From NCBI GenBank assembly GCA_964429225.1, contig CAYSAW010000006.1:89559-153558 (forward strand): 64,000 nucleotides of DNA. The letters run 5' to 3'. Below, in pieces: positions 5,417 through 47,645 of this stretch; position 1 is the first letter of the stretch, and each line of letters opens with the position of its first letter. Below the pieces are notes generated by a model that was not told the origin of the DNA, did not search any database, and saw only the letters and a list, made by a program, of their open reading frames with translations. The DNA is from an uncultured bacterium (GTDB lineage: Bacteria > Armatimonadota > DTGP01 > CAYSAW01). The position numbers and the translations under genes were made by a program.

Positions 5417-6799
5417 TTGATGCGTTTTCCAATAGTCATCCTCTTGACGCTCGCTTTATCGAGTCTCTTTTCGGATAGCCTTCTCAGTGAAGAGGCCGGG
5501 CTTGAAGTTTTCACTCTTTCTAACGGCGTACCGGTCATCTTCCAAAAAGAGAGTTCATCCCCTTTGGTAGCGATTGATCTTTGGGTCAAGGGAGGATCTT
5601 GCCTTCCAGACCTGGCTCCTGGTTCTGTCCACTTTTTAGAACACCTTCTCTTCAAGAAGAAGACCCCTTCCGGTCGCTCTTTGGATGAGGAGGCAGAGAC
5701 CTTGGGAGGCGTTCTTGAAGCTTATACTTCTCGGGATTGGATGCACTTCACTCTCGCCCTTCCTAAGGATAAGTTTTCCCAAGGTCTTCCCCTCTTGGCG
5801 AAGGTTCTTTCTCCACCCTCCTTCTCCGAGGAGGATTTATCCCGAGAGAGAGGTGTAGTCCTCGACGAAATCGTTTCCCAACGTTTGGCTCCGGCTAAGA
5901 GGTTAAAAGACCTTTTATGGGAGAAGGTTTACGGCAGTCATCCTTATAGCAGGCGGATACCCGGTTCTGTTGAGCAGGTCCTACGCCTGGGTCCAGCGGA
6001 TTTACAGAAAGCTTATCAGTATCTTTTTCGACCCGAAAACCTGAGGATAGTCATTGTCGGGAATCTTCCTTCCGACCAGGTTAAAAAGTCAGTTCAACAG
6101 ACCTTTGGTTCACTCTTTTCTAACCTAAAAGAAAAACAACCTCTTCCTAGATTGTCTACTATTCCCAGCAGGGTTTCCTGGCCAAGTAATCGAGATCTGG
6201 GCTTGATCCCCTTAGCGGGGACTGGGGGTAAGGGGGTATTGCTCCTTGCTTTTCCTGGCCCTACTATTGATCAAATACAAGAAGTATGGACCCTTGATCT
6301 CCTGAGTGTCCTTCTTGACGAGGGACCTTTAGGGTTGCTGAGTGATTTGCTGGTGAAGTCGGGGTTAGCCAAGGAGGTGGAAGTAGATTTTCTTACCCAA
6401 ATAGGGCCTTCTTTATTTGTGATTCAGGTAACCACTCAGCCTCAGCAGATCCCCCGAGTCCGGGAGGTCCTTCAGGAGGAGATCAATAATCTTTTAAAGA
6501 GGGTACAAAGTTCCGATTTGCTCCAGTCAGCTAAACAGAGACTTTTAACCCACTATGCTTTTGATACAGAGACAGTGATGGGTAAGGCTAGCTTCCTCGG
6601 TTTTTATGCTGTGGTGTCTTCCTTGGACAGAGCTCGAAGCTATAAAGAATCTATCTTAAAAATCTCGGGGGAAGAGGTTAGGAGAGTAATCGAGAAGTAC
6701 TTGAAAGCGGAAAAGGGCTACTGGTTAGTAGGGGTGCCGGCAACTCCTTCTTCTCCTGAGAGTGGGAGGGCTTATGAAGAGGGACGTAAAGGAAGTTAA
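5417..6799 (+). CDS. M16 family zinc peptidase (insulinase-like), catalytic subunit, secreted
   Basis: N-terminal signal peptide. Inverted zincin motif HFLEHLLF (HxxEH) is present. Length (460 aa) and architecture match pitrilysin-family enzymes. Confidence 0.8.
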   Translation: MMRFPIVILLTLALSSLFSDSLLSEEAGLEVFTLSNGVPVIFQKESSSPLVAIDLWVKGGSCLPDLAPGSVHFLEHLLFKKKTPSGRSLDEEAETLGGVLEAYTSRDWMHFTLALPKDKFSQGLPLLAKVLSPPSFSEEDLSRERGVVLDEIVSQRLAPAKRLKDLLWEKVYGSHPYSRRIPGSVEQVLRLGPADLQKAYQYLFRPENLRIVIVGNLPSDQVKKSVQQTFGSLFSNLKEKQPLPRLSTIPSRVSWPSNRDLGLIPLAGTGGKGVLLLAFPGPTIDQIQEVWTLDLLSVLLDEGPLGLLSDLLVKSGLAKEVEVDFLTQIGPSLFVIQVTTQPQQIPRVREVLQEEINNLLKRVQSSDLLQSAKQRLLTHYAFDTETVMGKASFLGFYAVVSSLDRARSYKESILKISGEEVRRVIEKYLKAEKGYWLVGVPATPSSPESGRAYEEGRKGS

Positions 6800-8207
6800 A
6801 GTTTTGCTTGCTACCCTCTTCTTCCTCCTCTCTTTGGCTGCTTGGGCGCAGGAGCAGGGGCTTTATAAAGTAACCTATCCGGAGGGGCTTACTGTAATCG
6901 TCGAAAGGCTTCCTAACGTTGAGGGCGTGGCGCTTACTGCTATGGTCCGAGTGGGAGGTTTGGATAACCAGGAGGGGAGGGTTTCCCAAGAAGCCCAGTC
7001 TCTGCTTGTTCATCTTCTGCTAAGAGAAGGATGTCATCCTGCCATTGCGGAGGATTTATCTCGGTTGTACCAAGAGGTGGGGGGGGGAGTTTCTGCTCTT
7101 GCAGGTGAAGAGGTGGCTGAATTTTCGGTGATCACTCTTCGGAGGAATTGGCAACTGGGAGTGGAATTGCTCTCTCTTCTTCTCACTCAGCCACGGATTA
7201 AGGAGTCCGATTTAGAGCAAGTTCGTCAGGAACGGATAGATCAGATAAAGGAGGAATCTCCTTGGGTAGAGGGGGTTCGGCAGTTGTTAGAAGATAAGCT
7301 CCTAGCTCGGAGGGGAGGAGGGTTCTCTCAAGGGGAGAAGGAGAAAGCTCTAAAACAGGTTACTCCCGAGTACCTTCAGCAGATATACCAACAATATTAT
7401 TGTTTAAGGAATATGATTGTCGTTGCTGTTGGGGATTTGGACCCTCCTTTTACTGCCGAATATATTGCCGAGTCTTTTAAGAAGAAGATCCCCGGTGGGC
7501 CTAAACCTTTAAGGGGGGCCGTCCGTAAGAAGAGGATAGATTATCCGAGAGATATAGAGATAGGTGAAACCCTGTTAAATCCTAGAGGGGAGACTGAGGT
7601 TACCATAGTGGAGGCGGAATCACCTTCAGCGGTGCTGGCGATGGGTTTTAAGGTGCCGGGGGTGGAGAGTCCTGACTATCCGGCTCTGCTAGTACTGAAT
7701 GCCCTTATTGGAGGAGGCAAGGGAAGTCGGCTTTTCCGGTATCTGCGTGAAAGGGAGGGGATTGGTTACGAGATCGGTGGGTGGCTTCCTCCCCGCTTAA
7801 AAGAAGGGATATTAATGTTTTATGTCATCACTCAGCCCTATCGAGTTAATCTACGAGGGGAGAGGGAACCTCTTTTAGAAAAAGCCCGTCGAATTATGGG
7901 AGAGCAGATCGAGGCGGTAACCCGAGGGGATTTTTCGGAAGCAGAGTTAATCCGCGCGCGACAATATATCAAAGGGAGTTGGCTGATCCGAAGGGAAAGG
8001 CTTTCGGACCGAGCTTCTTTGACTGGTTGGTGGGTACTGGCATCGATCCAAGAGGCTCATCCCGAAGATTTCCTAAAGCGAATCGAGGCTGTGAGCAGGA
8101 AACAAGTATTAGCAGTGGCGAAAAAATATATGAGAAGCCCCTCTATAGCGCTCATTCTTCCTCGGCAAGGGGGGCGGACGGATTCCTGGGGAGTGAACTC
8201 CCGGTGA
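6774..8207 (+). CDS. M16 family peptidase, probable non-catalytic partner subunit, secreted
   Basis: Signal peptide MKRDVKEVKVLLATLFFLLSLAAWAQ. M16-like length and layout but no HxxEH motif (LLVHLLLREG instead). Its ORF overlaps the upstream M16 gene by 38 nt, which suggests an operon. Confidence 0.7.
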   Translation: MKRDVKEVKVLLATLFFLLSLAAWAQEQGLYKVTYPEGLTVIVERLPNVEGVALTAMVRVGGLDNQEGRVSQEAQSLLVHLLLREGCHPAIAEDLSRLYQEVGGGVSALAGEEVAEFSVITLRRNWQLGVELLSLLLTQPRIKESDLEQVRQERIDQIKEESPWVEGVRQLLEDKLLARRGGGFSQGEKEKALKQVTPEYLQQIYQQYYCLRNMIVVAVGDLDPPFTAEYIAESFKKKIPGGPKPLRGAVRKKRIDYPRDIEIGETLLNPRGETEVTIVEAESPSAVLAMGFKVPGVESPDYPALLVLNALIGGGKGSRLFRYLREREGIGYEIGGWLPPRLKEGILMFYVITQPYRVNLRGEREPLLEKARRIMGEQIEAVTRGDFSEAELIRARQYIKGSWLIRRERLSDRASLTGWWVLASIQEAHPEDFLKRIEAVSRKQVLAVAKKYMRSPSIALILPRQGGRTDSWGVNSR

Positions 8208-8278: not shown

Positions 8279-11200
8279 ATGAAGGCTGGAAAGGCTTGGC
8301 TTCTGGTGGCATTCATTCTCGGCTTTGGGCTTTTACCCTCGGAGGGTTTTGGTCAGAGTGAAGAGAACAAGCCTACCCCGGAACAGGCGCGGATGTACCG
8401 CTTATTCTGGGGGGAGGTACAAGCGGGAAACCTGCTTCGGCATCTGAAAAAATTGACCCAGGCTTCCTCCCGCGTCGTTGGTTACCCTGGAGCTGATCAA
8501 GCGGCTGATTACATCCTTTCTGAGTTTCGGAGGCTTGGTTTAGAAAATGTTCGGGAGGAGCGTTACTGGGCCACGGTCCCCATTGATGAAGGGGCCTCTT
8601 TAACCATTGAAGGGGCGCAAGGGAAACCAATACCCCTCTACGCTTTGTGGCCGAATAGTGTTCGTACCTCTCAACTGCCTCCAGAGGGGCTTACCCTTCC
8701 GATGATTTATGGAGGGAATGGAGCCATCGCTCATTTGAACGGCAAGACCGTAGAAGGGTCTGCGGTTTTAATGGATTTTAACTGTGGTTCGGAGTGGTTG
8801 AATTCCGCTCGCTTGGGAGCTAGGGCAATTCTCTTCATCGAGCCGGAGGAGACCAGCCGAGGAGAGGCGGAGGCGAAGTTCCTAACGGTTCCTCTCGATA
8901 TGCCTCGCTTTTGGGTTCCTCGCAAGTATGCCCCTGCTTTGATCGCTTTGTGTCGGTCTGCCATCCCTCCTAAAGTGACTCTTCGTTGCCGAATGCCCTG
9001 GAAGCGCGTCCAGGCCCGAAACATCTTCGGGGTAATTCCCGGGACGGACCCCGAATTGAAGAATCAGATTATTATCCTTGAGGCTTACTATGACTCGATG
9101 TCGGTGGTGCCTCGCTTGGCTCCGGGGGCTGAGAGTGCTTCTGGAGTTTCTGCTTTGTTGGAATTGGCTCGCCTCTTTAAGAAGTACCCTCCAAAACGTA
9201 CCCTTTGGTTCCTTGTTACCTCAGGCCATCACTTGGGTTTAGCAGGGATTCGAAATTGGATTGAGGCTCACTGGAAGGATTTGGAACAGAATAGCACGCG
9301 TCAGAACTTTAAAGCTTGGTTGACAAGAACCTTCCCCTTCCTCTTCCATTTTAAGACCCGAGAACCTTGGCCCATTTACTTACTCATCGGATTGGACCTT
9401 TCCACTCAGACAAAAGGTGTGGGTATCTTCTACAAAGGTTGGTACTACGATTTCCGGGAGGATCTTCAGAGTAAATATTCGGATATTGCCCGCGTCCATC
9501 GAGAAAATGCTGAAAAAGTGGCTCAGGTCCTAAACCTGAATATTGGGGAGCGCTTTGCTGATGGGGTAAATCCCATTTCAGGGAAGTCTTGGCGGAACTT
9601 CATCCCTGCTAAGCCTGCCTTTGACGCGGAAGCCTATGCGATGGCAGGGGGGAAAGGAGTCACCTTTGCGAGTATAGACGACGGCCGAATGTTGGTAGAC
9701 ACTCCACTAGATCAGCTCTCGAGGATTAATATCGCGAACCTGACAGAGCAGACGAAATTAATCGCTTGTTTGACCTGGCATGATACTTATGACCCTAACG
9801 GGATTGGGATTACTCAGGGGACACACTTTCCCATTGTAGAGCCCTCTCCTCTCGGACGATTAAGGCTTCAGGGAGGTTTTGCCAAGATTGTTGGGCAAGT
9901 GATGGAGTTTGATCCACGCATTAGTATTGTTCCCAGTAAGCCGATTTTAGGGAGTATTGCGGTTTTGAAAAAGTGGAATAAGTCCTATATGGGAGTTCGG
10001 GGGTATCAGTTTGAGTTGGTGGATGACCAGGCCCGGTTCCAGTTTATCGGAGCTCCTCCTCTCACTGCTTATGGAGGAGGAGTCCAAACCCAGATTGCCG
10101 CTTATAAAGTGGATGACCGTACTGGGGAGTTGATTTATGCTCCCGACCTTGGGGTTACTGGGGGGAAAGAGAACTACCAAACCACCTTCCCCATTACTAC
10201 TGGTTTGAAAGAGACAGGTGTGGTCGTTTTCCGGTGCAATACCACTGCTCTTTATGACTTTGTGGATCCCCAAACTTTGCGGAGCTTGCCCACTATTAGT
10301 GTATTAGATTCGGTGAGCAACGGCGAACCCCGGATGTACGGCTTTGATAAGACCGTTCCTGAGCGGTTGGTCTCCCATATTGAGGATGTTGCCTTGATCT
10401 ACGCTCAAAAGGGGAATCGAGCCCTGGGCATTGAGCCTACTCGGGTGAAGATACTAGGATCTGCTGGGCCAGGGGCTATCCGGATGGTTCTGCTCAATAT
10501 GGCGGCGCGTCTCCCGAACGGTCAAATCCTCCGGGCGGACCAACTCCAGTATTTCCAAGGAGAGATCCCTCTCGATCGCCTCCAGCCTGTGGATACTGAA
10601 GGCCAGGGGTATGAGTTGAAAGGGGGTACTCTTTACAACACTCCTCTTCTTGCCGCCTGGGATATGTATGTGCTTAATGATGCCCGCATTAAAAAGCTAG
10701 CCCGCCACCGAATCATTAATCCCGCCATTGATGATCTCCATAATCGAGGGCGTCGAGAGCTCCAAGCGGCGTTAGTAGCGTTTCGTAACCGCCAGTGGGA
10801 TGAGTTCGACTCCCGGGCCCGCGCGGCCTGGGGCTATGAGTCCCGAGCTTATCCTGACGTCCGCCGCACGATGAATGACGTAGTTAAGGGAGTAATCTTC
10901 TACCTCTTCCTCCTCTTGCCTTTCTCCTATTTCTTTGAGCGGTTAGTTATCGGAAGCAAATTCCTCGTTCATCAGGTCCTTTGGACTTTGACCACCTTTA
11001 TTGTCATCTTCGTTATTTTCCGCTATGTCCATCCCGCCTTTGATATTACGATGAACCCCTTAATCGTTCTGCTGGCCTTCGTTATGTTGGCCCTCTCGAT
11101 CTTGGTTATTGGAATGATCTCCGGCCGGTTTGAGAAGGAGCTTAAAGAGTTTAACAAGCAGGTTTCTGGAGTTCATCGAATTGATATTGGGCGGATGAGC

Positions 11201-12967
11201 ATAGCGGCTGCGGCCTTCTCTTTAGGGATTTCCAATATGCGGCGAAGGAAGGCCCGGACGATTCTCACTTGCATAACGCTCATTTTACTTACTTTCACCG
11301 TGCTGTCCTTCACCTCAGTAGTACCTACGGTGCGCTTCAATAAGGTTCCCGCGCCGGGAAGCCCTTACTATTTTGGGATTATGCTGAGGACTCCGGAGTG
11401 GGGTACCTTGGAGGAGTCTGCCTACCGGATCTTGCGGGATGAGTTTTCCCGAACTCGGCCAGTGTCTGCTCGAGCTTGGTTCTTTGGCACCCAGTTGGGT
11501 GAACAGAGCTTTATTACTCTGAAACGGGGAGATAAGCGCTATGATGTCAAGGCAGTGGTCGGTTTAACCCCGGAGGAGGAGCGTATCCTCGAGCCAGGAA
11601 AGCGATCCTTAATCGCTGGCCGTTGGTTCCTCCCCGGAGACCGGAACGTGGTCATCCTTCCTAAACCGGTTGCGGATAGCTTAAACGTTACCCCGGAGCA
11701 GGTGGGGATTGCCAAAATTTCCTTCACGGGCCAAGATTATACCGTAATCGGCATTGTGGATAAAGATAAATTTAAAGAGGTGAAAGACCTCGACACCGAA
11801 CCCTTGACTCCGGTGGACTTTATTCAAATGAACCGGCTTCAGTCTCAGGGGAGAACTTCGGGAGCGGCAGAGGAGGGCTTTCGGGAGTATATCCACCTAG
11901 AACCAGAAGCGTGTGCTTTTATCCCCTTCCAAACTGCTCTTAATATGGGGGCGGAAATTCGCTCCATTGCGGTGAATATGGTGACGCCGGAAGAGGTGAG
12001 GAAAACCCTGGGGAACTTAATGTTCCGTCTGGGGCTGAACCTCTACGGCGGAGAACAGGTGAAAGTAGGGAATCGGGTGGAGAATCGCACCTATCGCTTC
12101 TCCACCATTGGAGCCACGGCAGCAAAGGGAGGCGGGGATGTTTTCATTCCTATCCTTATCGCTGCGCTCATTGTTCTTAACACAATGCTGGGATCGGTTT
12201 ATGAGCGGGTTAAGGAGATTGGAATTTACAGCTCGATTGGCCTGGCTCCCAATCACATAGCAGCCCTTTTCATCGGAGAGGCGATGGTCTATGCGGTTCT
12301 AGGGGCGGTGGCCGGTTATCTCACCGGGCAGATAGCGGCGAAAATCGTAACCCTCATTCCCGGTATGGGAGCGTTGTATCTGAACTTCTCCAGCCTCTCC
12401 GCAGTACTCACCACCCTTGTTGTAGTGGGGGTAGTCCTTTTATCTACCCTCTATCCAGCCCGTAAAGCCTCAGAAGTAGCTACCCCGGCGATCGAACGCA
12501 CCTGGAAAGTTCCTGAGCCAGAGGGAGATGAATGGCACATCACAATGCCCTTTGCAGTTACAGGTATCCAAGCGGTTGGACTCAATTCTTTCCTCAGAGA
12601 ATGGTTTGAAGCCTATGAGGAGTACAGCATTGGTGACTTTGTGACCCAGGATGTTTCGGCCCAGGAAGTGATGTATGAGAAGGGGAAAGGATACCAGATC
12701 CGCCTTAAAGCTTGGTTGGCCCCCTTCGACTTGGGAGTAAGTCAAACTTGCTTGTTAGAGACGATTCCCACCGAGATGGAAGATGTCTATGAGCTGAAGC
12801 TGACCATTCACCGAGAAAGTGGCGATGTTTCTAACTGGAAGCGTATCAACCGTCGCTTCCTTAATACCTTGCGCAAGCAATTCTTGATTTGGAGAACCCT
12901 CCGTCAGGAAGAGCGGGAGAGATATTTGGTTCAAACCTCTGGAGAGGCTCAACCGGTATCCTCCTAA
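8279..12967 (+). CDS. Giant 1562-aa fusion: signal peptide + PA-domain/M28-like peptidase domain + polytopic membrane region + FtsX/MacB-type permease domain
   Basis: Signal peptide MKAGKAWLLVAFILGFGLLPSEGFG. The N-terminal PA domain plus an M28-like region (YYDSMSVVPRLAPGAESASGVSALLELARLF; FLVTSGHHLGLAGIRNW) place it in the M28 family. Three TM helices lie near residue 880-950, followed by an FtsX-like module. That module has TM1 (RRRKARTILTCITLILLTFTVLSF), an extracytoplasmic domain of about 400 aa, and TM2-4 (IAALIVLNTMLGSVYERVKEIGIYSSIGLAPNHIAALFIGEAMVYAVLGAVAGYL). A C-terminal tail of about 180 aa follows. Confidence 0.75.
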   Translation: MKAGKAWLLVAFILGFGLLPSEGFGQSEENKPTPEQARMYRLFWGEVQAGNLLRHLKKLTQASSRVVGYPGADQAADYILSEFRRLGLENVREERYWATVPIDEGASLTIEGAQGKPIPLYALWPNSVRTSQLPPEGLTLPMIYGGNGAIAHLNGKTVEGSAVLMDFNCGSEWLNSARLGARAILFIEPEETSRGEAEAKFLTVPLDMPRFWVPRKYAPALIALCRSAIPPKVTLRCRMPWKRVQARNIFGVIPGTDPELKNQIIILEAYYDSMSVVPRLAPGAESASGVSALLELARLFKKYPPKRTLWFLVTSGHHLGLAGIRNWIEAHWKDLEQNSTRQNFKAWLTRTFPFLFHFKTREPWPIYLLIGLDLSTQTKGVGIFYKGWYYDFREDLQSKYSDIARVHRENAEKVAQVLNLNIGERFADGVNPISGKSWRNFIPAKPAFDAEAYAMAGGKGVTFASIDDGRMLVDTPLDQLSRINIANLTEQTKLIACLTWHDTYDPNGIGITQGTHFPIVEPSPLGRLRLQGGFAKIVGQVMEFDPRISIVPSKPILGSIAVLKKWNKSYMGVRGYQFELVDDQARFQFIGAPPLTAYGGGVQTQIAAYKVDDRTGELIYAPDLGVTGGKENYQTTFPITTGLKETGVVVFRCNTTALYDFVDPQTLRSLPTISVLDSVSNGEPRMYGFDKTVPERLVSHIEDVALIYAQKGNRALGIEPTRVKILGSAGPGAIRMVLLNMAARLPNGQILRADQLQYFQGEIPLDRLQPVDTEGQGYELKGGTLYNTPLLAAWDMYVLNDARIKKLARHRIINPAIDDLHNRGRRELQAALVAFRNRQWDEFDSRARAAWGYESRAYPDVRRTMNDVVKGVIFYLFLLLPFSYFFERLVIGSKFLVHQVLWTLTTFIVIFVIFRYVHPAFDITMNPLIVLLAFVMLALSILVIGMISGRFEKELKEFNKQVSGVHRIDIGRMSIAAAAFSLGISNMRRRKARTILTCITLILLTFTVLSFTSVVPTVRFNKVPAPGSPYYFGIMLRTPEWGTLEESAYRILRDEFSRTRPVSARAWFFGTQLGEQSFITLKRGDKRYDVKAVVGLTPEEERILEPGKRSLIAGRWFLPGDRNVVILPKPVADSLNVTPEQVGIAKISFTGQDYTVIGIVDKDKFKEVKDLDTEPLTPVDFIQMNRLQSQGRTSGAAEEGFREYIHLEPEACAFIPFQTALNMGAEIRSIAVNMVTPEEVRKTLGNLMFRLGLNLYGGEQVKVGNRVENRTYRFSTIGATAAKGGGDVFIPILIAALIVLNTMLGSVYERVKEIGIYSSIGLAPNHIAALFIGEAMVYAVLGAVAGYLTGQIAAKIVTLIPGMGALYLNFSSLSAVLTTLVVVGVVLLSTLYPARKASEVATPAIERTWKVPEPEGDEWHITMPFAVTGIQAVGLNSFLREWFEAYEEYSIGDFVTQDVSAQEVMYEKGKGYQIRLKAWLAPFDLGVSQTCLLETIPTEMEDVYELKLTIHRESGDVSNWKRINRRFLNTLRKQFLIWRTLRQEERERYLVQTSGEAQPVSS

Positions 12968-13060
12968 AAGAAGGCATAAGGTATAAAGTATAGGGGAGAA
13001 AGGAAATGGGTTTTCTCCCCTCCTCTTTGTTGTTGAATCTTCTATAAGGAGTAAAACCTG

Positions 13061-13735
13061 ATGCAAATTTGGATGCGTGGCTTTCGTTTCTTTACCCTTT
13101 TCTTTTTGGTTATTGGCCTCGTTAGTAGCGTTGGGTCTGCACCTGGAAAAGCAGCCAAGAAAGGAGCGGGGTTCACCTCTTTAGTGATCCAGGGGAAGTT
13201 AATTAGCAAGCCTAATCAAGGATCGGTTAGGACAGAGAAGTCTTCTCTTTACGTTCAGAACAATCGGTTTCGCTGGGAGGAGGGGCCGATGGTACGGGTT
13301 TTTGATGGGAGCCGGCTCCTCCTTTGGGATACTCGATCTCCCCGAAAAGTGGCTATTGAGTTGACACCTCCTAAAGAATTACTGAACAGCAAGGGGAAAA
13401 CTGCCTCTCAGCTTCTAGCCCAGTTGAATGCCAGTCCTCAGAAGGGGAAGAAGATCGGCACGGGGAAGGTGGCTGGGTATCTTTGTGACATTTACCTGAA
13501 TGAGACCCCCAATGGGAAGCAGAAAGTGTGGCTTGCGAAGGACCTTGGGGTTCCTCTTCCCCTTCGAGTTCAGTTTACCGGGTCTATGGGGAGTATGGAG
13601 CTGGTGGCAGAATCAGTAAAAACCAATATAAAAATTGCGGAGGCCCTCTTTCGGTTGCCCGCGGGTTATTCGGTCACCCGACCTCCTGCTGGCCCACCGG
13701 GAGGCCCGCCCGCGGCTCCTCCTTCGAAGCGTTGA
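13061..13735 (+). CDS. Secreted hypothetical protein, DUF4412-like, with Pro/Gly-rich C-terminal tail
   Basis: Signal peptide (FFTLFFLVIGLVSSVGSA). The central segment KVAGYLCDIYLNETPNGKQKVWLAKDLG resembles the DUF4412 family. The C-terminus is PPAGPPGGPPAAPP. Confidence 0.45.
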   Translation: MQIWMRGFRFFTLFFLVIGLVSSVGSAPGKAAKKGAGFTSLVIQGKLISKPNQGSVRTEKSSLYVQNNRFRWEEGPMVRVFDGSRLLLWDTRSPRKVAIELTPPKELLNSKGKTASQLLAQLNASPQKGKKIGTGKVAGYLCDIYLNETPNGKQKVWLAKDLGVPLPLRVQFTGSMGSMELVAESVKTNIKIAEALFRLPAGYSVTRPPAGPPGGPPAAPPSKR

Positions 13736-17147: not shown

Positions 17148-18827
17148 ATGGCCTCTTCTCTTCGCTCTCTCGATCAAAAGGTATTAGAGCTTTTAAAGGT
17201 TCGCTTGGAGCCGATCTGGGGAGATTATCTCCTTTTTTATCAGTCGGAGGAGGCGAAGCGGTTACGAGCAGAGCAGGAGGTTCGCAAAAACCTCTTTCGT
17301 ACCGCCCTTGCTCCAAGCAACCTCCAGGCCCTCGATCAGGATCAACTGGCGGATATCCTCAAACACTTATTTTCGGCTCGCTATCCTAGCCGAGCCTCTC
17401 GCCTGGCTGTGGAGGGCAACGATCTGGAGGACTTAAAGTGGTCCCTTCACGACTTGCTTTGGGGCCAGGATGATCTTCCTTTGCGCTTTGATTCCGCTCG
17501 GCGGTCTATTCGGGGCTTGGGTACCGCTTCTCTCACTGAGATTCTTTACTGGGTTCACACTGACCAGTGCTTCCTCTGTAACCGCTGGGTGGAATCGGCT
17601 TTCCATTCTCTTGGGTTATGGCCCTCTTCAGCGCACTTGGAGCATCTTTCGGGCCTTCAATATGTTCAGATTTGTGAAGGCGCTCGATACCTTATGGCTT
17701 TACTCCCTTCCTCTACCCGAGAAGCGGGAGATTTTACTGATGTGGATTGCTTGGTAGCCTTCCTCCACTATCGTAAATCCCAAGAGCAGCCGGAATTACC
17801 CCAGTTAAAGGTGGTCACCCCGGAGGTTACGCCACTCTCCTTCTCCGCTTCAGAGAGGAAGACAAACCTCTCTTCAGAGGTTCTCCAAGAGCCTCAGGCC
17901 GGCCTGTCGGAACCAGGGGTGGGGCGGGTGGCGGAAGCCCCTCCACCAGAGTGGTCCCGTCAATCAGCCTTAGAGCAGCTCTCCCGAGAGACTTATCTCC
18001 CCCAAAGGTTTCTGGCAACAATAGAACGCTTGATTAGAAGTAAGGGACAGTTGATTTTCAAAGGGCCTCCAGGGACCGGAAAAACTTTTCTCGCTCGAAA
18101 AGTGGCCCAGTATCTGGCAGGCCCCGGGGGATTAGTTACAGTGGTTCAGTTCCATCCCTCCTACACTTATGAGGACTTTATTGAAGGCATCCGACCTCAG
18201 TCCATCTTGGTTCAAGGTCAATATGAAGTGACCTATCCAGTTCAGGAGGGGGTCTTTTTACAATTTTGTCGTTTGGCCTCCCAACGGCCCGACACCTGCG
18301 TGTTGGTGGTAGATGAGATCAATCGAGGAGACCTTCCTCGCATCTTCGGGGAGCTTTTGTACAGCCTGGAGTACCGAGGGGAACCCGTTCTCCTCCCTTA
18401 CTCTCACCGATCCTTTATTCTCCCTTCTAATGTGTTAATTTTAGGGACGATGAATACCGCCGACCGGAGTGCTGGGAGCCTGGATTTGGCTTTACAAAGG
18501 CGCTTTGCCTTTGTTGAGCTGCGACCCGACGTCAACGTGTTGAAGCGATGGTTAAAGGCGAATCCAGTGAAGATTCCCAATTTGCTGGAATATTTCCATT
18601 TGAGTCAAGAGGCCGTGCCTCGGCCTGAAGCTCGTCCCGGCCACGGCTTCTTTATGGTTCCTGGTCTTGATGAGAAGGGGATGGAACTTCTTTGGCGCCA
18701 TACTATTTACCCTTATCTTGTCTCTTGTCTTTGGGATCAACCCCATCGTGCTGAGGAGTTTCGCTGGGAGAGAATTCAGAAGCGGATAGGGCCTCTTGAG
18801 AAACCTTCAGAGAAGGCTAAGGGGTGA
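17148..18827 (+). CDS. McrB-like AAA+ GTPase (type IV restriction system specificity/motor subunit) with uncharacterised 300-aa N-terminal domain
   Basis: Walker A FKGPPGTGKTF. McrB signature segments VLVVDEINRGDLPRIFGELLYSLEYRG, GTMNTADRS and LALQRRFAFVEL are present. The N-terminal 300 aa has no recognisable DNA-binding fold from sequence alone. Confidence 0.8.
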   Translation: MASSLRSLDQKVLELLKVRLEPIWGDYLLFYQSEEAKRLRAEQEVRKNLFRTALAPSNLQALDQDQLADILKHLFSARYPSRASRLAVEGNDLEDLKWSLHDLLWGQDDLPLRFDSARRSIRGLGTASLTEILYWVHTDQCFLCNRWVESAFHSLGLWPSSAHLEHLSGLQYVQICEGARYLMALLPSSTREAGDFTDVDCLVAFLHYRKSQEQPELPQLKVVTPEVTPLSFSASERKTNLSSEVLQEPQAGLSEPGVGRVAEAPPPEWSRQSALEQLSRETYLPQRFLATIERLIRSKGQLIFKGPPGTGKTFLARKVAQYLAGPGGLVTVVQFHPSYTYEDFIEGIRPQSILVQGQYEVTYPVQEGVFLQFCRLASQRPDTCVLVVDEINRGDLPRIFGELLYSLEYRGEPVLLPYSHRSFILPSNVLILGTMNTADRSAGSLDLALQRRFAFVELRPDVNVLKRWLKANPVKIPNLLEYFHLSQEAVPRPEARPGHGFFMVPGLDEKGMELLWRHTIYPYLVSCLWDQPHRAEEFRWERIQKRIGPLEKPSEKAKG

Positions 18828-18957
18828 GTATCTTTCATCAGATAGGGGCGAAAGTCAGAGCAATGGGGTAGCGATAGGCTTAAGCCTGAGCAAAAGAGGA
18901 GTGTTAGAGTGAACCCTTACCCTTTTGGGAGGGACTTTTAGCTGGAGGTAGCCTCGG

Positions 18958-20172
18958 GTGGGGGCCAACAAAGTGCCTAAGAAGCACTTGGTTTTAAGGG
19001 AGTCGAGTGTTCGCCGGGGGGTGGAGTTTCCTTTCGAGGAGGTGATAGAAGTCACTCGCTCCTTCTCCAATGTGCTAACCTTTGTTCCTTCCTCTAGGGG
19101 GCATCGGTTTGACATCTACACCAAAGATTTTGTAGGGGTTCTTCAAGTCAATGATTGGAAGATCACTATCTTGCCAAAAGGGGGATGGGTAGCTCTTTTC
19201 CCTTTGCTAGCTAAAATCCGTTACTGGCCAGAGATAGAGGGAGATTCTACCACCGCCTATCGGGTTCGTAAGGGTTTCTTAGAAACGGTAGCTGGGTGTT
19301 TTTTGGAGATGCTTAAGCCCCTTCTCCGAAGAGGTTGGGCGGAAGTCTTCCACAAAGAGGCGAATTTCACCCCAACAGTAAGAGGGCGTATTCAGTGGAA
19401 TCTTCCCTCCTACCGGCGTACTCCTCCCTCCTTCTGTTGTGAATATCCCTACCGGACCAAAAACCTCCCGCCGAATCAATTGATCAAGAAGGCTCTTCAA
19501 GCTTTATCCTTTTTCCCTGAGCTAGAGCAAGATTTTAGATCGCAAATTGACCGTTTACTGGAGGATTTAGAGGAGGTGGGGGAGTTAACCCTTCCTCCGG
19601 AAGAAGTGAATGCTCCCTTTCAGCGGCCGGAGTATCGCCCCGTGTTAAACTTAGCTCGTTTAATTGTTGCTGGAACCAGCCCTTACTGCTTATCTGTTGA
19701 TAGTACCTCCTCCCCTCCTTTGCCGGCCTTTCTTCTCTCCTTGTCTCGGATCTTTCAGGATTACGTTACCGCAATTCTTTCGGAGAAGCTAGAGCCGATG
19801 GCTTATTGGGTAAAGCCGGAGCCTCGCTTTCTCCTCTCCTCAGAAGAAAAGTCTTTGGAAATCAAACCCGATCTGGTCCTCTATGATGAGGCTCCTATAG
19901 GGGTTGTGGAAGTTAAGTATAAATACGGGGATAACTTGCCGGCCCCTGAGGATTTCTATCAGGTTGTGACTTATGCTACAATGATGAACATCCAGGAGGC
20001 TTTCTTAGTTTATCCGGGGCGAAGGTCTCCTTTATGCTTCTCTTTAACCCCTCATTTAAGGGTTCATCTCCTCTTCGGTCCTCTTTCGGGAAGCCCCTCC
20101 CAGATAGAGGAAGAGTGGAAAGCTTTGGGAGATTATATTGAGAACCAAATTTCCAAGTTCGTTACCGGGTAG
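18958..20172 (+). CDS. McrC-like nuclease subunit (PD-(D/E)xK)
   Basis: It lies immediately downstream of the McrB-like gene. The C-terminal PD-(D/E)xK-like motif PDLVLYDEAPIGVVEVKYKY is present. GTG start with GGAGG SD. Confidence 0.65.
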   Translation: MGANKVPKKHLVLRESSVRRGVEFPFEEVIEVTRSFSNVLTFVPSSRGHRFDIYTKDFVGVLQVNDWKITILPKGGWVALFPLLAKIRYWPEIEGDSTTAYRVRKGFLETVAGCFLEMLKPLLRRGWAEVFHKEANFTPTVRGRIQWNLPSYRRTPPSFCCEYPYRTKNLPPNQLIKKALQALSFFPELEQDFRSQIDRLLEDLEEVGELTLPPEEVNAPFQRPEYRPVLNLARLIVAGTSPYCLSVDSTSSPPLPAFLLSLSRIFQDYVTAILSEKLEPMAYWVKPEPRFLLSSEEKSLEIKPDLVLYDEAPIGVVEVKYKYGDNLPAPEDFYQVVTYATMMNIQEAFLVYPGRRSPLCFSLTPHLRVHLLFGPLSGSPSQIEEEWKALGDYIENQISKFVTG

Positions 20173-45638: not shown

Positions 45639-47645
45639 TTAGGAACCGCATTTACATTTGCATCGAGAGGGTTCCAAGGTGCTTAAAGGCTCCAGATAGG
45701 CTTCCGTTCTTTTGGCGATTTCTTGGAACCATTCGCCATTGGGAGTTGTGAGGAGAAACCACCAAGCGGAAGGCCGGTAGTGGGTTCTCTCCAACCCTTC
45801 AACGGTGAGAAGGGCATCTCTGACGAGTTCCACTTTGATCCGGTGGGCTTCCAAGTCTAGAGTTTTCATTTGTTCCCGATCTGCTTTAATTTGGGGATCG
45901 GAGAGGAGGCGGTGGCGTTCTTCTCTCAGCTTTTGAATTTGTGCGGAATAATCCCGAATTTGTTGGTGGAGGGCTTGCCATTGGGTATCAAAGACTTTTC
46001 TCCTTTCCTGATGGGATTGGATTTCTCTCCGAAGCGCTTCTGCTTCTGGGGTATGGGATTGTTTTTGAGCCTCTAGTTCCAGCAATCGTTCTCGGAGAGG
46101 CATTACCAAGGCTCTCCAATCCCGGCCCTTCTCTCGAGCGATGGCTTCGGACTCGGCCTTCAGGGCTTTGATCTCCCAAAAGAGGCGGTGGATCTCATCT
46201 TTTAGGGCTTGAAGACGTTTACGAAGCTGGAGGATTCTCTGCCGGCTCTGGGCATATTGCTCTTTCTTGGCAGTCCATTCTTCAGGTATCCAGTTTGCCA
46301 AGAGCTGGATGAGGTCCCAGGGGCTTCGGGCCTCCTTCAGTTGGAGGAGGCGTTGTTGCTGAGATCGCCTTACTTGGCGCCAGGAATGGGCAAACTCTTC
46401 GGAAGTAATTTCTTTCTTACCGAAAGCGCGTGCGAGGTGGGGAGGGAGCCGAAAGAGGGCTTGGGTAGGTCCTACAGCGTCCCAGGTGGGATAGCGTAAG
46501 CGCAGGATGGGGTGAAGAGGGAAAGGAACCCCTCGCTGAGCAAGGGCCTGAGCCATCTTTCGAGTGCGCCATACATAAGAGGAACCAAGTTCGTTAAGAA
46601 CTACAATGAACTCACTGGCCATCATCGCGATCAGGACAACTGCTTTCCCCACCAAGGCGATTGCTTGGCCCAGGTTTTGTTCCAAGATTTCTGCGAGGTC
46701 GCAGACATTGAGGACGTCTTCCCTTGTTTTTAGGTAGAGAGGTTCATCACCAGCGATAACAATCTTTCTAGGGAGAAGGCAGAGAGTGCCGCGTCCATAT
46801 CCGGGGATGACTACATCGAAAGGGAGGGTTCCTGGGCCAAACTTATCGAGGGTGTAAATCTCGGAGCCTGCCACTGCTTCATTATAGCTCTCGCAGTAGA
46901 GGGATCGGGTAGTAGGGTTGAGGAAGCGTTGAAGGAGGAAGAAGCGAGGAGCTCGGCAGGTTTCTCGGTTAAAGCGGAACAGATCGCTGGATAAACCGAT
47001 TCTTACTCCCTCCAAAGGAGCTTGGGTAAGGGATTGGAGGAGGAATTCTGCCAAGTGGAGGTAGAGGTCTGTGAGTTTGGCTTCGGGGTGGGCTTGGGCG
47101 AAATCTTGAACCCTTTGTAAAAATTGCTCGGCCCATTGCCGAGACTTTTCAGGGGAGGGGCCGAGGAGGGATTCCAGGGATGCCTCTAAACCCCAGCGTA
47201 GCAGATCCATCAATCGGGGGAGTACCGCTTTTAGAGGGACTTCTCCTGCCAGCAGGCGTCGGGAGCCAGTGAAAACCAAGCCCCTCCACCCCCAGGCTTC
47301 CGTAATTCGATCAAGAAAGGCGTCGCGCCCTTCGGGGGAGGTCCGGGCCACTTTTTCCACCTGGGCGTTATAAGCGGTTAATTTTTCTCGAGTGGGAAGG
47401 GTTTCGCTCCCGAAGAGTTGGGAGAGTTCTCCGGTGGCTACCCACAAGTCCCGGGTGCTATGGTCGTTATGAGGAAGGATCTCAAACTCATCTTGGCCGG
47501 GATGTCCGGTAGGAGACTTAGAGAAGTAGTCTGTATCCATTACCCCCATCCAAAAGGGGGCGGGGTAACCTACCTCTCGAAGGGGTTCCAGAAGGACTGC
47601 TTTAGTTGGTTCATCCCAGAGGACCGTTTGGCCCAGGGCGACCAA
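45639..47645 (-). CDS. Hypothetical 668-aa protein with long C-terminal coiled-coil
   Basis: Coding-like composition. No recognisable catalytic motif. C-terminal heptad-rich region (…LQLRKRLQALKDEIHRLFWEIKALKAESEAIAREKG…) ends in CKCKCGS. Confidence 0.45.
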   Translation of the reverse strand: MVALGQTVLWDEPTKAVLLEPLREVGYPAPFWMGVMDTDYFSKSPTGHPGQDEFEILPHNDHSTRDLWVATGELSQLFGSETLPTREKLTAYNAQVEKVARTSPEGRDAFLDRITEAWGWRGLVFTGSRRLLAGEVPLKAVLPRLMDLLRWGLEASLESLLGPSPEKSRQWAEQFLQRVQDFAQAHPEAKLTDLYLHLAEFLLQSLTQAPLEGVRIGLSSDLFRFNRETCRAPRFFLLQRFLNPTTRSLYCESYNEAVAGSEIYTLDKFGPGTLPFDVVIPGYGRGTLCLLPRKIVIAGDEPLYLKTREDVLNVCDLAEILEQNLGQAIALVGKAVVLIAMMASEFIVVLNELGSSYVWRTRKMAQALAQRGVPFPLHPILRLRYPTWDAVGPTQALFRLPPHLARAFGKKEITSEEFAHSWRQVRRSQQQRLLQLKEARSPWDLIQLLANWIPEEWTAKKEQYAQSRQRILQLRKRLQALKDEIHRLFWEIKALKAESEAIAREKGRDWRALVMPLRERLLELEAQKQSHTPEAEALRREIQSHQERRKVFDTQWQALHQQIRDYSAQIQKLREERHRLLSDPQIKADREQMKTLDLEAHRIKVELVRDALLTVEGLERTHYRPSAWWFLLTTPNGEWFQEIAKRTEAYLEPLSTLEPSRCKCKCGS

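Follow-up and report, generated by a model that had tools for sequence, protein, structure and literature searches.

The stretch analysed here, a 64-kb window (64,000 nucleotides of contig CAYSAW010000006.1) from an uncultured member of the Armatimonadota, carries at positions 8279 to 12967 of the forward strand a gene for a protein of 1,562 amino acids (aa), referred to below as Big. The gene has an ATG start codon and is the sole long open reading frame (ORF) at this position; its features listed below all lie on the forward strand. A first-pass annotation, made from the DNA letters alone, had described the product as an M28 peptidase-like module fused to an FtsX/MacB-type permease, and Pfam searches, hydropathy analysis and comparison with homologues bear this out. 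Peptidase_M28 matched residues 248 to 355 with 38.8 bits (cut-off, 21.3), over the first half of the profile only, and FtsX (PF02687) matched residues 1289 to 1398 with 58.6 bits (cut-off, 25.5). MacB_PCD (PF12704) at residues 994 to 1164 scored 22.3 bits, slightly under its cut-off of 27, and is on record for the majority of Big homologues. A search of PDB sequences with Big retrieved 2ek8 (a PA-containing aminopeptidase; residues 48 to 329), MacB, YtrF, LolC, and nicalin. As detailed below, Big is a MacB-fold permease that covalently carries an M28 ectodomain, probably with a PA insertion, devoid of the di-zinc site.

Hydropathy peaks identified a signal peptide or N-terminal anchor at residues 1 to 24 (8279 to 8350), with no lipobox cysteine in the sequence of Big, followed by an ectodomain extending from residue 25 to residue 867. 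The M28 aminopeptidase fold occupies residues ~48 to 505 (8420 to 9793), with a probable PA domain inserted at residues ~118 to 245. It is followed by a beta-rich module (residues 506 to ~760) and a four-helix bundle (residues ~788 to 867) that leads into the membrane (9794 to 10879), as seen in the secondary structure of an AlphaFold2 model. This beta-rich and helical module (506 to 867) belongs to no Pfam family. A scan of 1.84 billion representative proteins found it in 415 clusters, at the same relative position and mainly in proteins of 1,400 to 1,900 aa, the remainder being shorter (probably partial) proteins and a few giants. Three additional transmembrane (TM) helices come next (residues 868 to 891, 895 to 918, and 929 to 947; 10880 to 11119), as described in the first-pass annotation; E887-R888 and H918-P-A-F are invariant in this region. 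A K/R-rich linker (residues 948 to 993) connects these helices to the MacB/FtsX-type permease core (11120 to 12451), delineated by Pfam and by alignment to MacB (5lil) and YtrF (9o9x). The core consists of a cytoplasmic elbow, TM1 (994 to 1012), a large extracytoplasmic, periplasmic core domain of 275 aa (1013 to 1287) between TM1 and TM2, and TM2 to TM4 (1288 to 1391), with a coupling helix between TM2 and TM3. The coupling helix, ERVKEIGIYSSIG, aligns with ERTKEIGVRMAIG of MacB and is invariant across the Big family. The protein ends with a conserved cytoplasmic domain (residues 1396 to 1562; 12464 to 12964) of beta-alpha-beta4-alpha2, helix-grip-like organization, which contains no nucleotide-binding motifs and is not an ATPase. 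Sequence conservation runs through both the three extra TM helices and this C-terminal domain. The resulting topology (ectodomain out, linker in, MacB core out, tail in) is self-consistent with a cleaved or anchoring N terminus. By its FtsX score, its four-TM core, and its coupling helix, Big is predicted to be a membrane subunit of a type VII (MacB/FtsX-fold) ATP-binding cassette (ABC) transporter.

The search for homologues returned more than 120 full-length relatives (1,330 to 2,030 aa; 49 to 97% identity) with both Pfam domains, and a scan of one genome per GTDB species, the comparative search for the same fusion that had been advocated on first reading, confirmed at least 598 Big loci with the single-ORF fusion architecture. 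Because homologues and species loci share this architecture, a chimera of two genes joined by a frameshift, which the first-pass annotation had named as a possible refutation, is excluded. Named records among the 80 retained loci were all from Armatimonadota (Chthonomonadales, Fimbriimonadales, Capsulimonadaceae, Armatimonadales, and Ca. Hebobacteria) or from Fervidibacter, with full-length identities of 43 to 68% across the phylum. Database names for these proteins are limited to "FtsX-like permease family protein" or "M28 family peptidase," and no paper describing the fusion or its gene cluster was found in the literature searched. Giant relatives of 2,100 to 3,050 aa have N-terminal additions before the M28 domain: LysM peptidoglycan-binding repeats together with NMB0315 domain I in P0278 and P0425, and Ig-like Big_5 repeats in P0338, P0396, and P0403. 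A sequence labelled Candidatus Poribacteria falls in one of the clusters with LysM repeats, so that the family may reach beyond Armatimonadota.

The ectodomain was modelled with AlphaFold2 (residues 26 to 871, 70 homologues), giving a mean pLDDT of 92.4 and a pTM of 0.91. The PA-bearing M28 enzymes 2ek8 and 3iib aligned with the model over 357 to 389 residues, versus 267 residues for the PA-less Aeromonas aminopeptidase (AAP). The next matches were transferrin receptor 1 (TfR1), GCPII, glutaminyl cyclases, and GPAA1, and Foldseek concurred. Since the PA-bearing enzymes align over the longer stretch, the model supports a complete M28 fold with a PA insertion. The PA domain named in the first-pass annotation is thus supported by structural alignment but not by Pfam, which gave no PA match in Big at an E value of ≤1 and records PF02225 for four homologues. 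In many relatives of ~1,650 to 1,700 aa (P0040, P0050, P0055, P0064, P0079, P0092, P0099, P0104, P0113, and P0117), the M28 domain is interrupted after the H317 motif and before D373 (equivalent to window positions 9233 to 9380) by an insertion of ~70 to 100 residues containing two hydrophobic helices, where Big has only a short amphipathic stretch, AWLTRTFPFLFHF. The insertion suggests that this face of the ectodomain lies against the membrane.

The active-site positions of M28 enzymes were mapped with HMMER alignments of Big and of the family profile to solved structures (AAP, Bacillus BSAP, and 2ek8), and their conservation was read from column profiles of 121 close homologues and 100 diverse 50%-identity representatives. 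The positions concerned (Y270, D272, E285, H317, H318, D373, A450, and E451) are encoded between 9086 and 9631. The metal ligand H97 of AAP is replaced by Y270 (Y or F in ~82 to 97% of the family, Y itself in 75 to 81%, and H in 2 to 6%), next to the structural residue D99, which is retained as the invariant D272. The bridging ligand D117 corresponds to E285 (E in 70 to 81% and D in 14 to 18%), with a one-residue deletion, and the general base E151 corresponds to H317 (H in 96 to 99%). At the position of the ligand E152, Big has H318 and most relatives have F, the others having C, G, H, or Y. D373, the equivalent of D179, is the sole ligand retained unchanged (92 to 100% of the family). The last ligand, H256, is replaced by A450 in Big and by A, S, or G in most relatives. 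Since 9% of the diverse members keep H there, the register of the alignment at this position is fixed. The aligned motifs are thus GHLDS, GA(D/N)D, and EE in the solved M28 enzymes versus AYYDS, GA-E, and HH in Big. The replacements of HxD by YYD and of GADD by GAES that had been read by eye are confirmed by these alignments. That of EE by HH holds for Big itself; for the family only its first histidine does, H being a minority at the second position.

Compared with the PA-domain M28 aminopeptidases from Aneurinibacillus (2ek8), Bacillus (BSAP, 6hc6), and Pseudomonas (PaAP, 8acr) and with AAP (1rtq), Big therefore differs at the active site by H97Y, D117E, E151H, E152H/F, and H256A. It also differs from these enzymes by a 360-residue beta-rich and helical extension and by being anchored to the membrane within a permease. 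Big has the fold of peptidase family M28 (clan MH) and lacks its full set of zinc ligands and its general base. The canonical co-catalytic di-zinc site, suspected from the first reading to be missing from Big, is lost across the whole family. Other residues are highly conserved: E451 is a family-specific, near-invariant residue (87 to 100%), and D468, R470, D474, T475, and P476 are also near-invariant. Since this alternative set of polar residues is so well conserved, the pocket is remodelled rather than decaying. The conserved C-terminal domain, this near-invariant pocket, and the minimal FtsX subunit described below are features that the first-pass annotation had not mentioned.

The alternatives put forward in that annotation, namely, a binding module of the kind found in nicastrin and the transferrin receptor or a non-canonical metal site, remain the right pair. 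As an active hydrolase, the ectodomain would use a non-canonical site, for instance, a mononuclear metal bound by E285, D373, H317, and E451, switched on and off by the ABC module as cell-wall hydrolases are by FtsEX. Its targets could be stem peptides of peptidoglycan or periplasmic peptides, the products of which would be imported by an OPT-like partner (see below). We regard this as a less probable reading that deserves to be kept in mind. Of the five metal ligands, three are substituted, as is the general base, and position 318 is mainly occupied by Phe. LysM repeats were found in one distant cluster only, the other giants having Ig-like repeats, and the pair of M16 peptidase genes found upstream of Big in the window adjoins it in few lineages (3 of 49 species loci).

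Ectodomains of M28 or M28/PA type that lack the zinc ligands and sit on a membrane machine are also found in nicalin, nicastrin, TfR1, and GPAA1, none of which acts as an aminopeptidase. The likeness of Big to TfR1 and GPAA1 was found by structure and that to nicalin by sequence, nicalin aligning to the Big family profile with an E value of 9e-9. In these eukaryotic proteins the ectodomain serves as a receptor or gatekeeper, and the ectodomain of Big may, by analogy, have a counterpart role. Unlike them, Big is bacterial and fused to an ABC-type permease, and the near-invariance of its substitute pocket would be unexpected for a purely steric gate.

The neighbourhood of Big was surveyed by tblastn over 85 loci, one of which (L001) is the window's own region in a Logan assembly, and partners were tallied for the 45 species loci offering 9 kb or more of sequence downstream of Big. 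Big stands at the head of a cluster of six genes, in the order Big, A, B, a PqqD-like protein, a minimal FtsX, and an ABC ATPase. All five partners were present at 39 of these loci (87%), the start of the LolD/MacB-type ATPase gene lying 4.1 to 9.0 kb downstream of Big (median, 4.6 kb). The absence of an ATPase, highlighted in the first-pass annotation, is thus not a trait of the family. The six exceptions comprised three loci without any partner and three with A only. Clustering of ORFs from 82 loci revealed no other widely conserved neighbour; what it returned was limited to antisense shadow ORFs, small membrane proteins confined to particular lineages (18 loci), and, in 7 loci, the M16 pair. 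The full cluster is present in the cultured bacterium Chthonomonas calidirosea (L016 and L030). In Fervidibacter, Big and A were found together at a locus (L084) whose contig is short.

Protein A (660 to 685 aa) is polytopic, with at least 12 hydrophobic segments. Its match to the oligopeptide transporter family OPT (PF03169) is weak: 2 of 30 members gave a match (best E value, 1.2e-5), the protein of L004 gave none, and precomputed matches exist for ~15 of 120 homologues, some of which are named "peptide transporter" by NCBI. Protein B (~300 aa) is soluble and Cys-rich; its CxxC, WHC, and C-terminal CH motifs are conserved. Profile searches of PDB sequences with A and B were empty, and NCBIfam holds no model for Big, A, or B. 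In 18 loci, including those of Chthonomonadales, one or two small membrane-anchored proteins are encoded between A and B (17078 to 18476 in L014; 19567 to 21499 in L003); their C termini presumably resemble the H-X9-DG motif of DUF1559-type proteins. The PqqD-like protein (~150 aa) matched PF05402 with 46.7 bits (cut-off, 23.4). The minimal FtsX (~190 to 215 aa) has four TM helices and an outer loop of ~30 residues in place of a periplasmic domain, and it shares an ER.KEIG coupling helix with Big. In some lineages this protein reaches ~430 aa (18818 to 20113 in L005; 18132 to 19406 in L027), with extra hydrophobic segments before the FtsX domain; SLBB (soluble ligand-binding beta-grasp) domains, which elsewhere are typical of polysaccharide-export proteins, are recorded ahead of the FtsX domain for L005 only. 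The ATPase (~245 aa) has an intact Walker A motif (GPSGSGKS), an LSGGQ signature, and a Walker B motif (ILADEP). It is 70 to 93% identical to the nearest of four reference ATPases. Its best models were LolD, MacB, DarD, YbbA, DevA, and FtsE, all with scores under the cut-offs, the top NCBIfam match being LolD with 230 bits (cut-off, 308).

The composition of the cluster recalls that of systems for ribosomally synthesized and posttranslationally modified peptides (RiPPs), in which the PqqD-like protein would recognize a leader, the M16 and M28-like proteins would process the peptide, and the ABC transporter would export it. The PqqD-like protein matched the lasso, PQQ, and GeoRSP peptide-chaperone models, MacB-type exporters do serve RiPP clusters, and the darobactin protein DarD is among the best models of the ATPase. 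All the PqqD matches, however, fell under the curated cut-offs of the named systems, and ORF clustering found neither a conserved small precursor ORF nor a modifying enzyme (radical SAM or cyclase) in the cluster. Presence throughout a phylum with identities of 45 to 70% (70 to 93% for the ATPase) is also atypical of secondary-metabolite clusters. We therefore consider maturation and export of a ribosomal peptide improbable.

Type VII ABC systems pass the energy of ATP to separate periplasmic partners that act in cell division, lipoprotein sorting, efflux, or lipid hydrolysis. FtsEX-EnvC (PMC7668044) and YbbAP-TesA (PMC12646458) are examples in which the periplasmic partner is bound non-covalently. 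Big resembles FtsEX-EnvC, -PcsB, and -RipC and YbbAP-TesA in several respects: its FtsX-fold four-TM core bears a periplasmic domain inserted after TM1, it has a coupling helix, a LolD/FtsE-type ATPase is encoded in the family's cluster, and a module of a hydrolase family lies on the outside. Big departs from them in that this outer module is covalent, N-terminal, and tethered by three extra TM helices, and in that it is of the M28/PA type rather than LytM/coiled-coil, CHAP, NlpC/P60, or SGNH. Unlike these systems, Big also has the helix-grip-like cytoplasmic domain, and it scores 15.5 bits against the FtsX model (cut-off, 255). The cluster resembles LolCDE in encoding a pair of unlike FtsX-fold membrane subunits alongside a single ATPase. 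It departs from LolCDE in that its second subunit lacks a periplasmic domain altogether and none of its conserved members is LolA-like, and Big scores 22.9 bits against LolC (cut-off, 473) and 17.9 bits against lolCE (cut-off, 362). Big differs from MacB by the absence of a fused nucleotide-binding domain and by a score of 22.9 bits (cut-off, 966).

In the window itself, a six-frame motif scan found no Walker A motif (G..G.GK[ST]) paired with LSGGQ, leaving aside an McrB-type AAA protein at ~18 kb, and tblastn with four LolD-type queries detected no LolD-type ATPase at an E value of ≤1e-3. The first-pass annotation was correct on this point. All five partners are absent both from the window and from the 10 kb upstream (L001). 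However, an orthologue of A (P0123) was found in the same sample (SRR11582145) on a contig different from that of Big. In NCBI records, Big lies on a 202.7-kb contig and A on a 128.6-kb contig. P0123 is 72% identical to the A protein of L004, a relative that is itself 68% identical. The search with B returned no homologue from this sample. The A genes of close relatives also stand alone, with no gene for B, the PqqD-like protein, FtsX, or an ABC protein within 10 kb on either side. The lone A gene of the window's lineage (210 to 2249 in L086; ~10001 to 12040 in L093 to L095) has on one side a gene for a PQQ_2 beta-propeller, upstream of which a GH99-like glycosidase is encoded, and on the other a gene for a PilT-like T2SSE ATPase, which a sigma/anti-sigma pair follows. 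The nearest relatives, L004, L054, and L090, have an intact cluster. Since A persists unlinked in the same sample and the nearest relatives have retained the cluster, the window's lineage must once have had the cluster, which has since been dispersed. The missing ATPase is probably a local accident of gene order, peculiar to this lineage, and the ATPase and other partners of this genome are presumed to be encoded elsewhere.

Alternatively, the permease might work in this organism without any ABC ATPase, as a passive scaffold or driven otherwise, for example, by its own C-terminal domain. This proposal can draw on 64 kb devoid of such an ATPase, a terminator-like hairpin located immediately after Big, the 6 of 45 species loci that likewise have no ATPase nearby, and the extra conserved cytoplasmic domain. 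It is nonetheless unlikely. The C-terminal domain is small, helix-grip-like, and devoid of nucleotide-binding motifs, the unlinked A gene in the same sample speaks for dispersal and not loss, and the ATPase belongs to the cluster at most assessable loci. In addition, the coupling helix of Big in the window and in the split-cluster lineages L032, L034, and L083 is unaltered and no less conserved than where the cluster is intact, which argues that an ATPase is still used in the window's lineage.

Directly upstream of Big, the forward strand encodes a secreted M16 pair, made up of a peptidase subunit with a signal-like N terminus (5420 to 6799; Pfam Peptidase_M16 and M16_C; HxxEH motif, as HFLEH, at residue 72) and a second M16-family subunit (6774 to 8207; M16_C only). 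The latter is probably non-catalytic because it lacks the HxxEH motif; a heterodimer of an active and an inactive subunit is the usual layout for M16 pairs. The best models of the pair were YfmH/YfmF and PqqF, all under cut-offs. The first M16 gene is probably co-transcribed with Big. The pair is found directly upstream of Big only in the window's lineage, L004, L090, and 3 of 49 species loci. The terminator-like hairpin (12992 to 13031, forward strand), with an 11-bp GC-containing stem and a T-rich tail, begins 25 nucleotides past the stop codon of Big, and is supported by its position alone, such sites being no more frequent in the region than in shuffled sequence. It is consistent with an M16-M16-Big transcription unit ending there in this genome. 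The slot of partner A is occupied by a 224-aa ORF (13061 to 13735, forward strand) encoding a secreted DUF4412 protein (Pfam) with a proline-rich tail. Its size would have fitted an adjacent ATPase, a possibility ruled out by this identification. A LolA-like partner role is ruled out as well, since none of the 85 comparison loci has this neighbour except L001; the DUF4412 protein is outside the conserved system. Further downstream are a CDF transporter, HflX, a DUF1559/N-methyl protein, and McrBC, the last consisting of an McrB-like AAA_5 GTPase/ATPase (559 aa) and McrC (404 aa) at 17148 to 20172 (forward strand), which are not kept beside Big elsewhere. Nine of the ten largest remaining ORFs in the window were assigned by Pfam to housekeeping functions, and one had no match. 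A 668-aa ORF (45639 to 47645, reverse strand) matched no Pfam family at an E value of ≤1e-5 and is unrelated to A (tblastn negative).

McrBC, 4 kb downstream of Big, bears on one further interpretation, in which Big would be a CARF-type signalling effector of antiviral defence. The PADLOC model PDLC01991 ("CARF_m8--CARF_LolE_TM"), the name of which presumably goes back to a survey of CARF proteins by Makarova et al. (2020; NAR 48:8828), matched residues 827 to 1542 of Big (E value, 1.8e-64; 216 bits). The fold of the C-terminal domain and the genomic context speak against this interpretation, leaving it next to no probability: the cytoplasmic domain of Big, as modelled, does not have the Rossmann-like fold of CARF domains. 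What the model shares with Big is the three extra TM helices, the periplasmic core, the FtsX domain, and the C-terminal domain (window positions 10757 to 12964). Since PDLC01991 lacks the M28 ectodomain and extends at its C terminus by ~127 positions without equivalent in Big, there appears to be an M28-less sister family with another cytoplasmic domain.

Taken as a whole, we think it likely that Big works as a type VII subunit coupled to an ATPase and that its M28 site is non-canonical. With somewhat less assurance, we favour a reading in which an asymmetric ABC mechanotransducer of type VII (MacB/LolCE/FtsX-fold), conserved across Armatimonadota, has Big as its large subunit. Established behaviour of type VII transporters, as reviewed for MacB (PMC5985334) and as seen in FtsEX-EnvC and YbbAP-TesA, provides the basis for the following mechanism. 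Big would pair with the minimal FtsX protein as LolC does with LolE, and two copies of the ATPase would dock on the TM2-TM3 coupling helices of the pair. Binding and hydrolysis of ATP would shift the TM1/TM2 stalk and the periplasmic core domain, and this motion would be passed to the tethered M28/PA ectodomain, which would replace a separate partner such as EnvC, PcsB, RipC, or TesA. The pocket, with its near-invariant D272, E285, H317, D373, E451, D468, R470, and D474, would hold the free terminus of a peptide or protein in the periplasm, acting as in nicastrin or nicalin and not as a di-zinc exopeptidase. The peptide may then be passed across or along the inner membrane with the help of the OPT-like protein A and the cytoplasmic PqqD-like chaperone. 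A peptide substrate is suggested because the OPT-like protein and the PqqD-like chaperone are always adjacent and because M16 peptidases are present in some lineages, and LysM repeats in distant relatives hint at a link with the cell wall. Any specific model of the substrate is tentative.

Several points weigh against this mechanism. The pairing of Big with the minimal FtsX was deduced from gene order alone, and a Big homodimer coexisting with a separate minimal-FtsX transporter that shares the ATPase would fit equally well. The pocket of near-invariant His and carboxylate residues could bind a single metal and be catalytic. The OPT-like assignment of A is weak, drawing on a few marginal matches, and A is the only partner located for the window's lineage, in which a trans-encoded ATPase would have to be assumed.

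The type VII ABC fold and the M28 fold are both known; what is new here is an uncharacterized, phylum-wide system of six genes, conserved across a poorly studied phylum at identity levels typical of core genes and matched by no curated family. More speculatively, the cluster may encode a previously unrecognized housekeeping machine of the envelope, in which an ATP-driven heterodimer would work a nicastrin-like ectodomain capturing peptides or protein termini, together with an OPT-like channel and an RRE-type chaperone; such a machine could substitute for, or complement, trafficking of the Lol type or wall remodelling of the FtsEX type in this phylum. With the partner built into the permease, the path of force from the ATPase to the effector would lie within one polypeptide, making Big an attractive structural model of mechanotransmission, and the presence of Big in cultured members of the phylum (C. 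calidirosea and Fervidibacter) makes the system experimentally approachable. An M28-fold module without the canonical zinc site is a design that this bacterial protein shares with the eukaryotic nicastrin, nicalin, transferrin receptor, and GPAA1, and the ectodomain of Big may offer a prokaryotic parallel to the way in which these domains recognize their substrates at a membrane.

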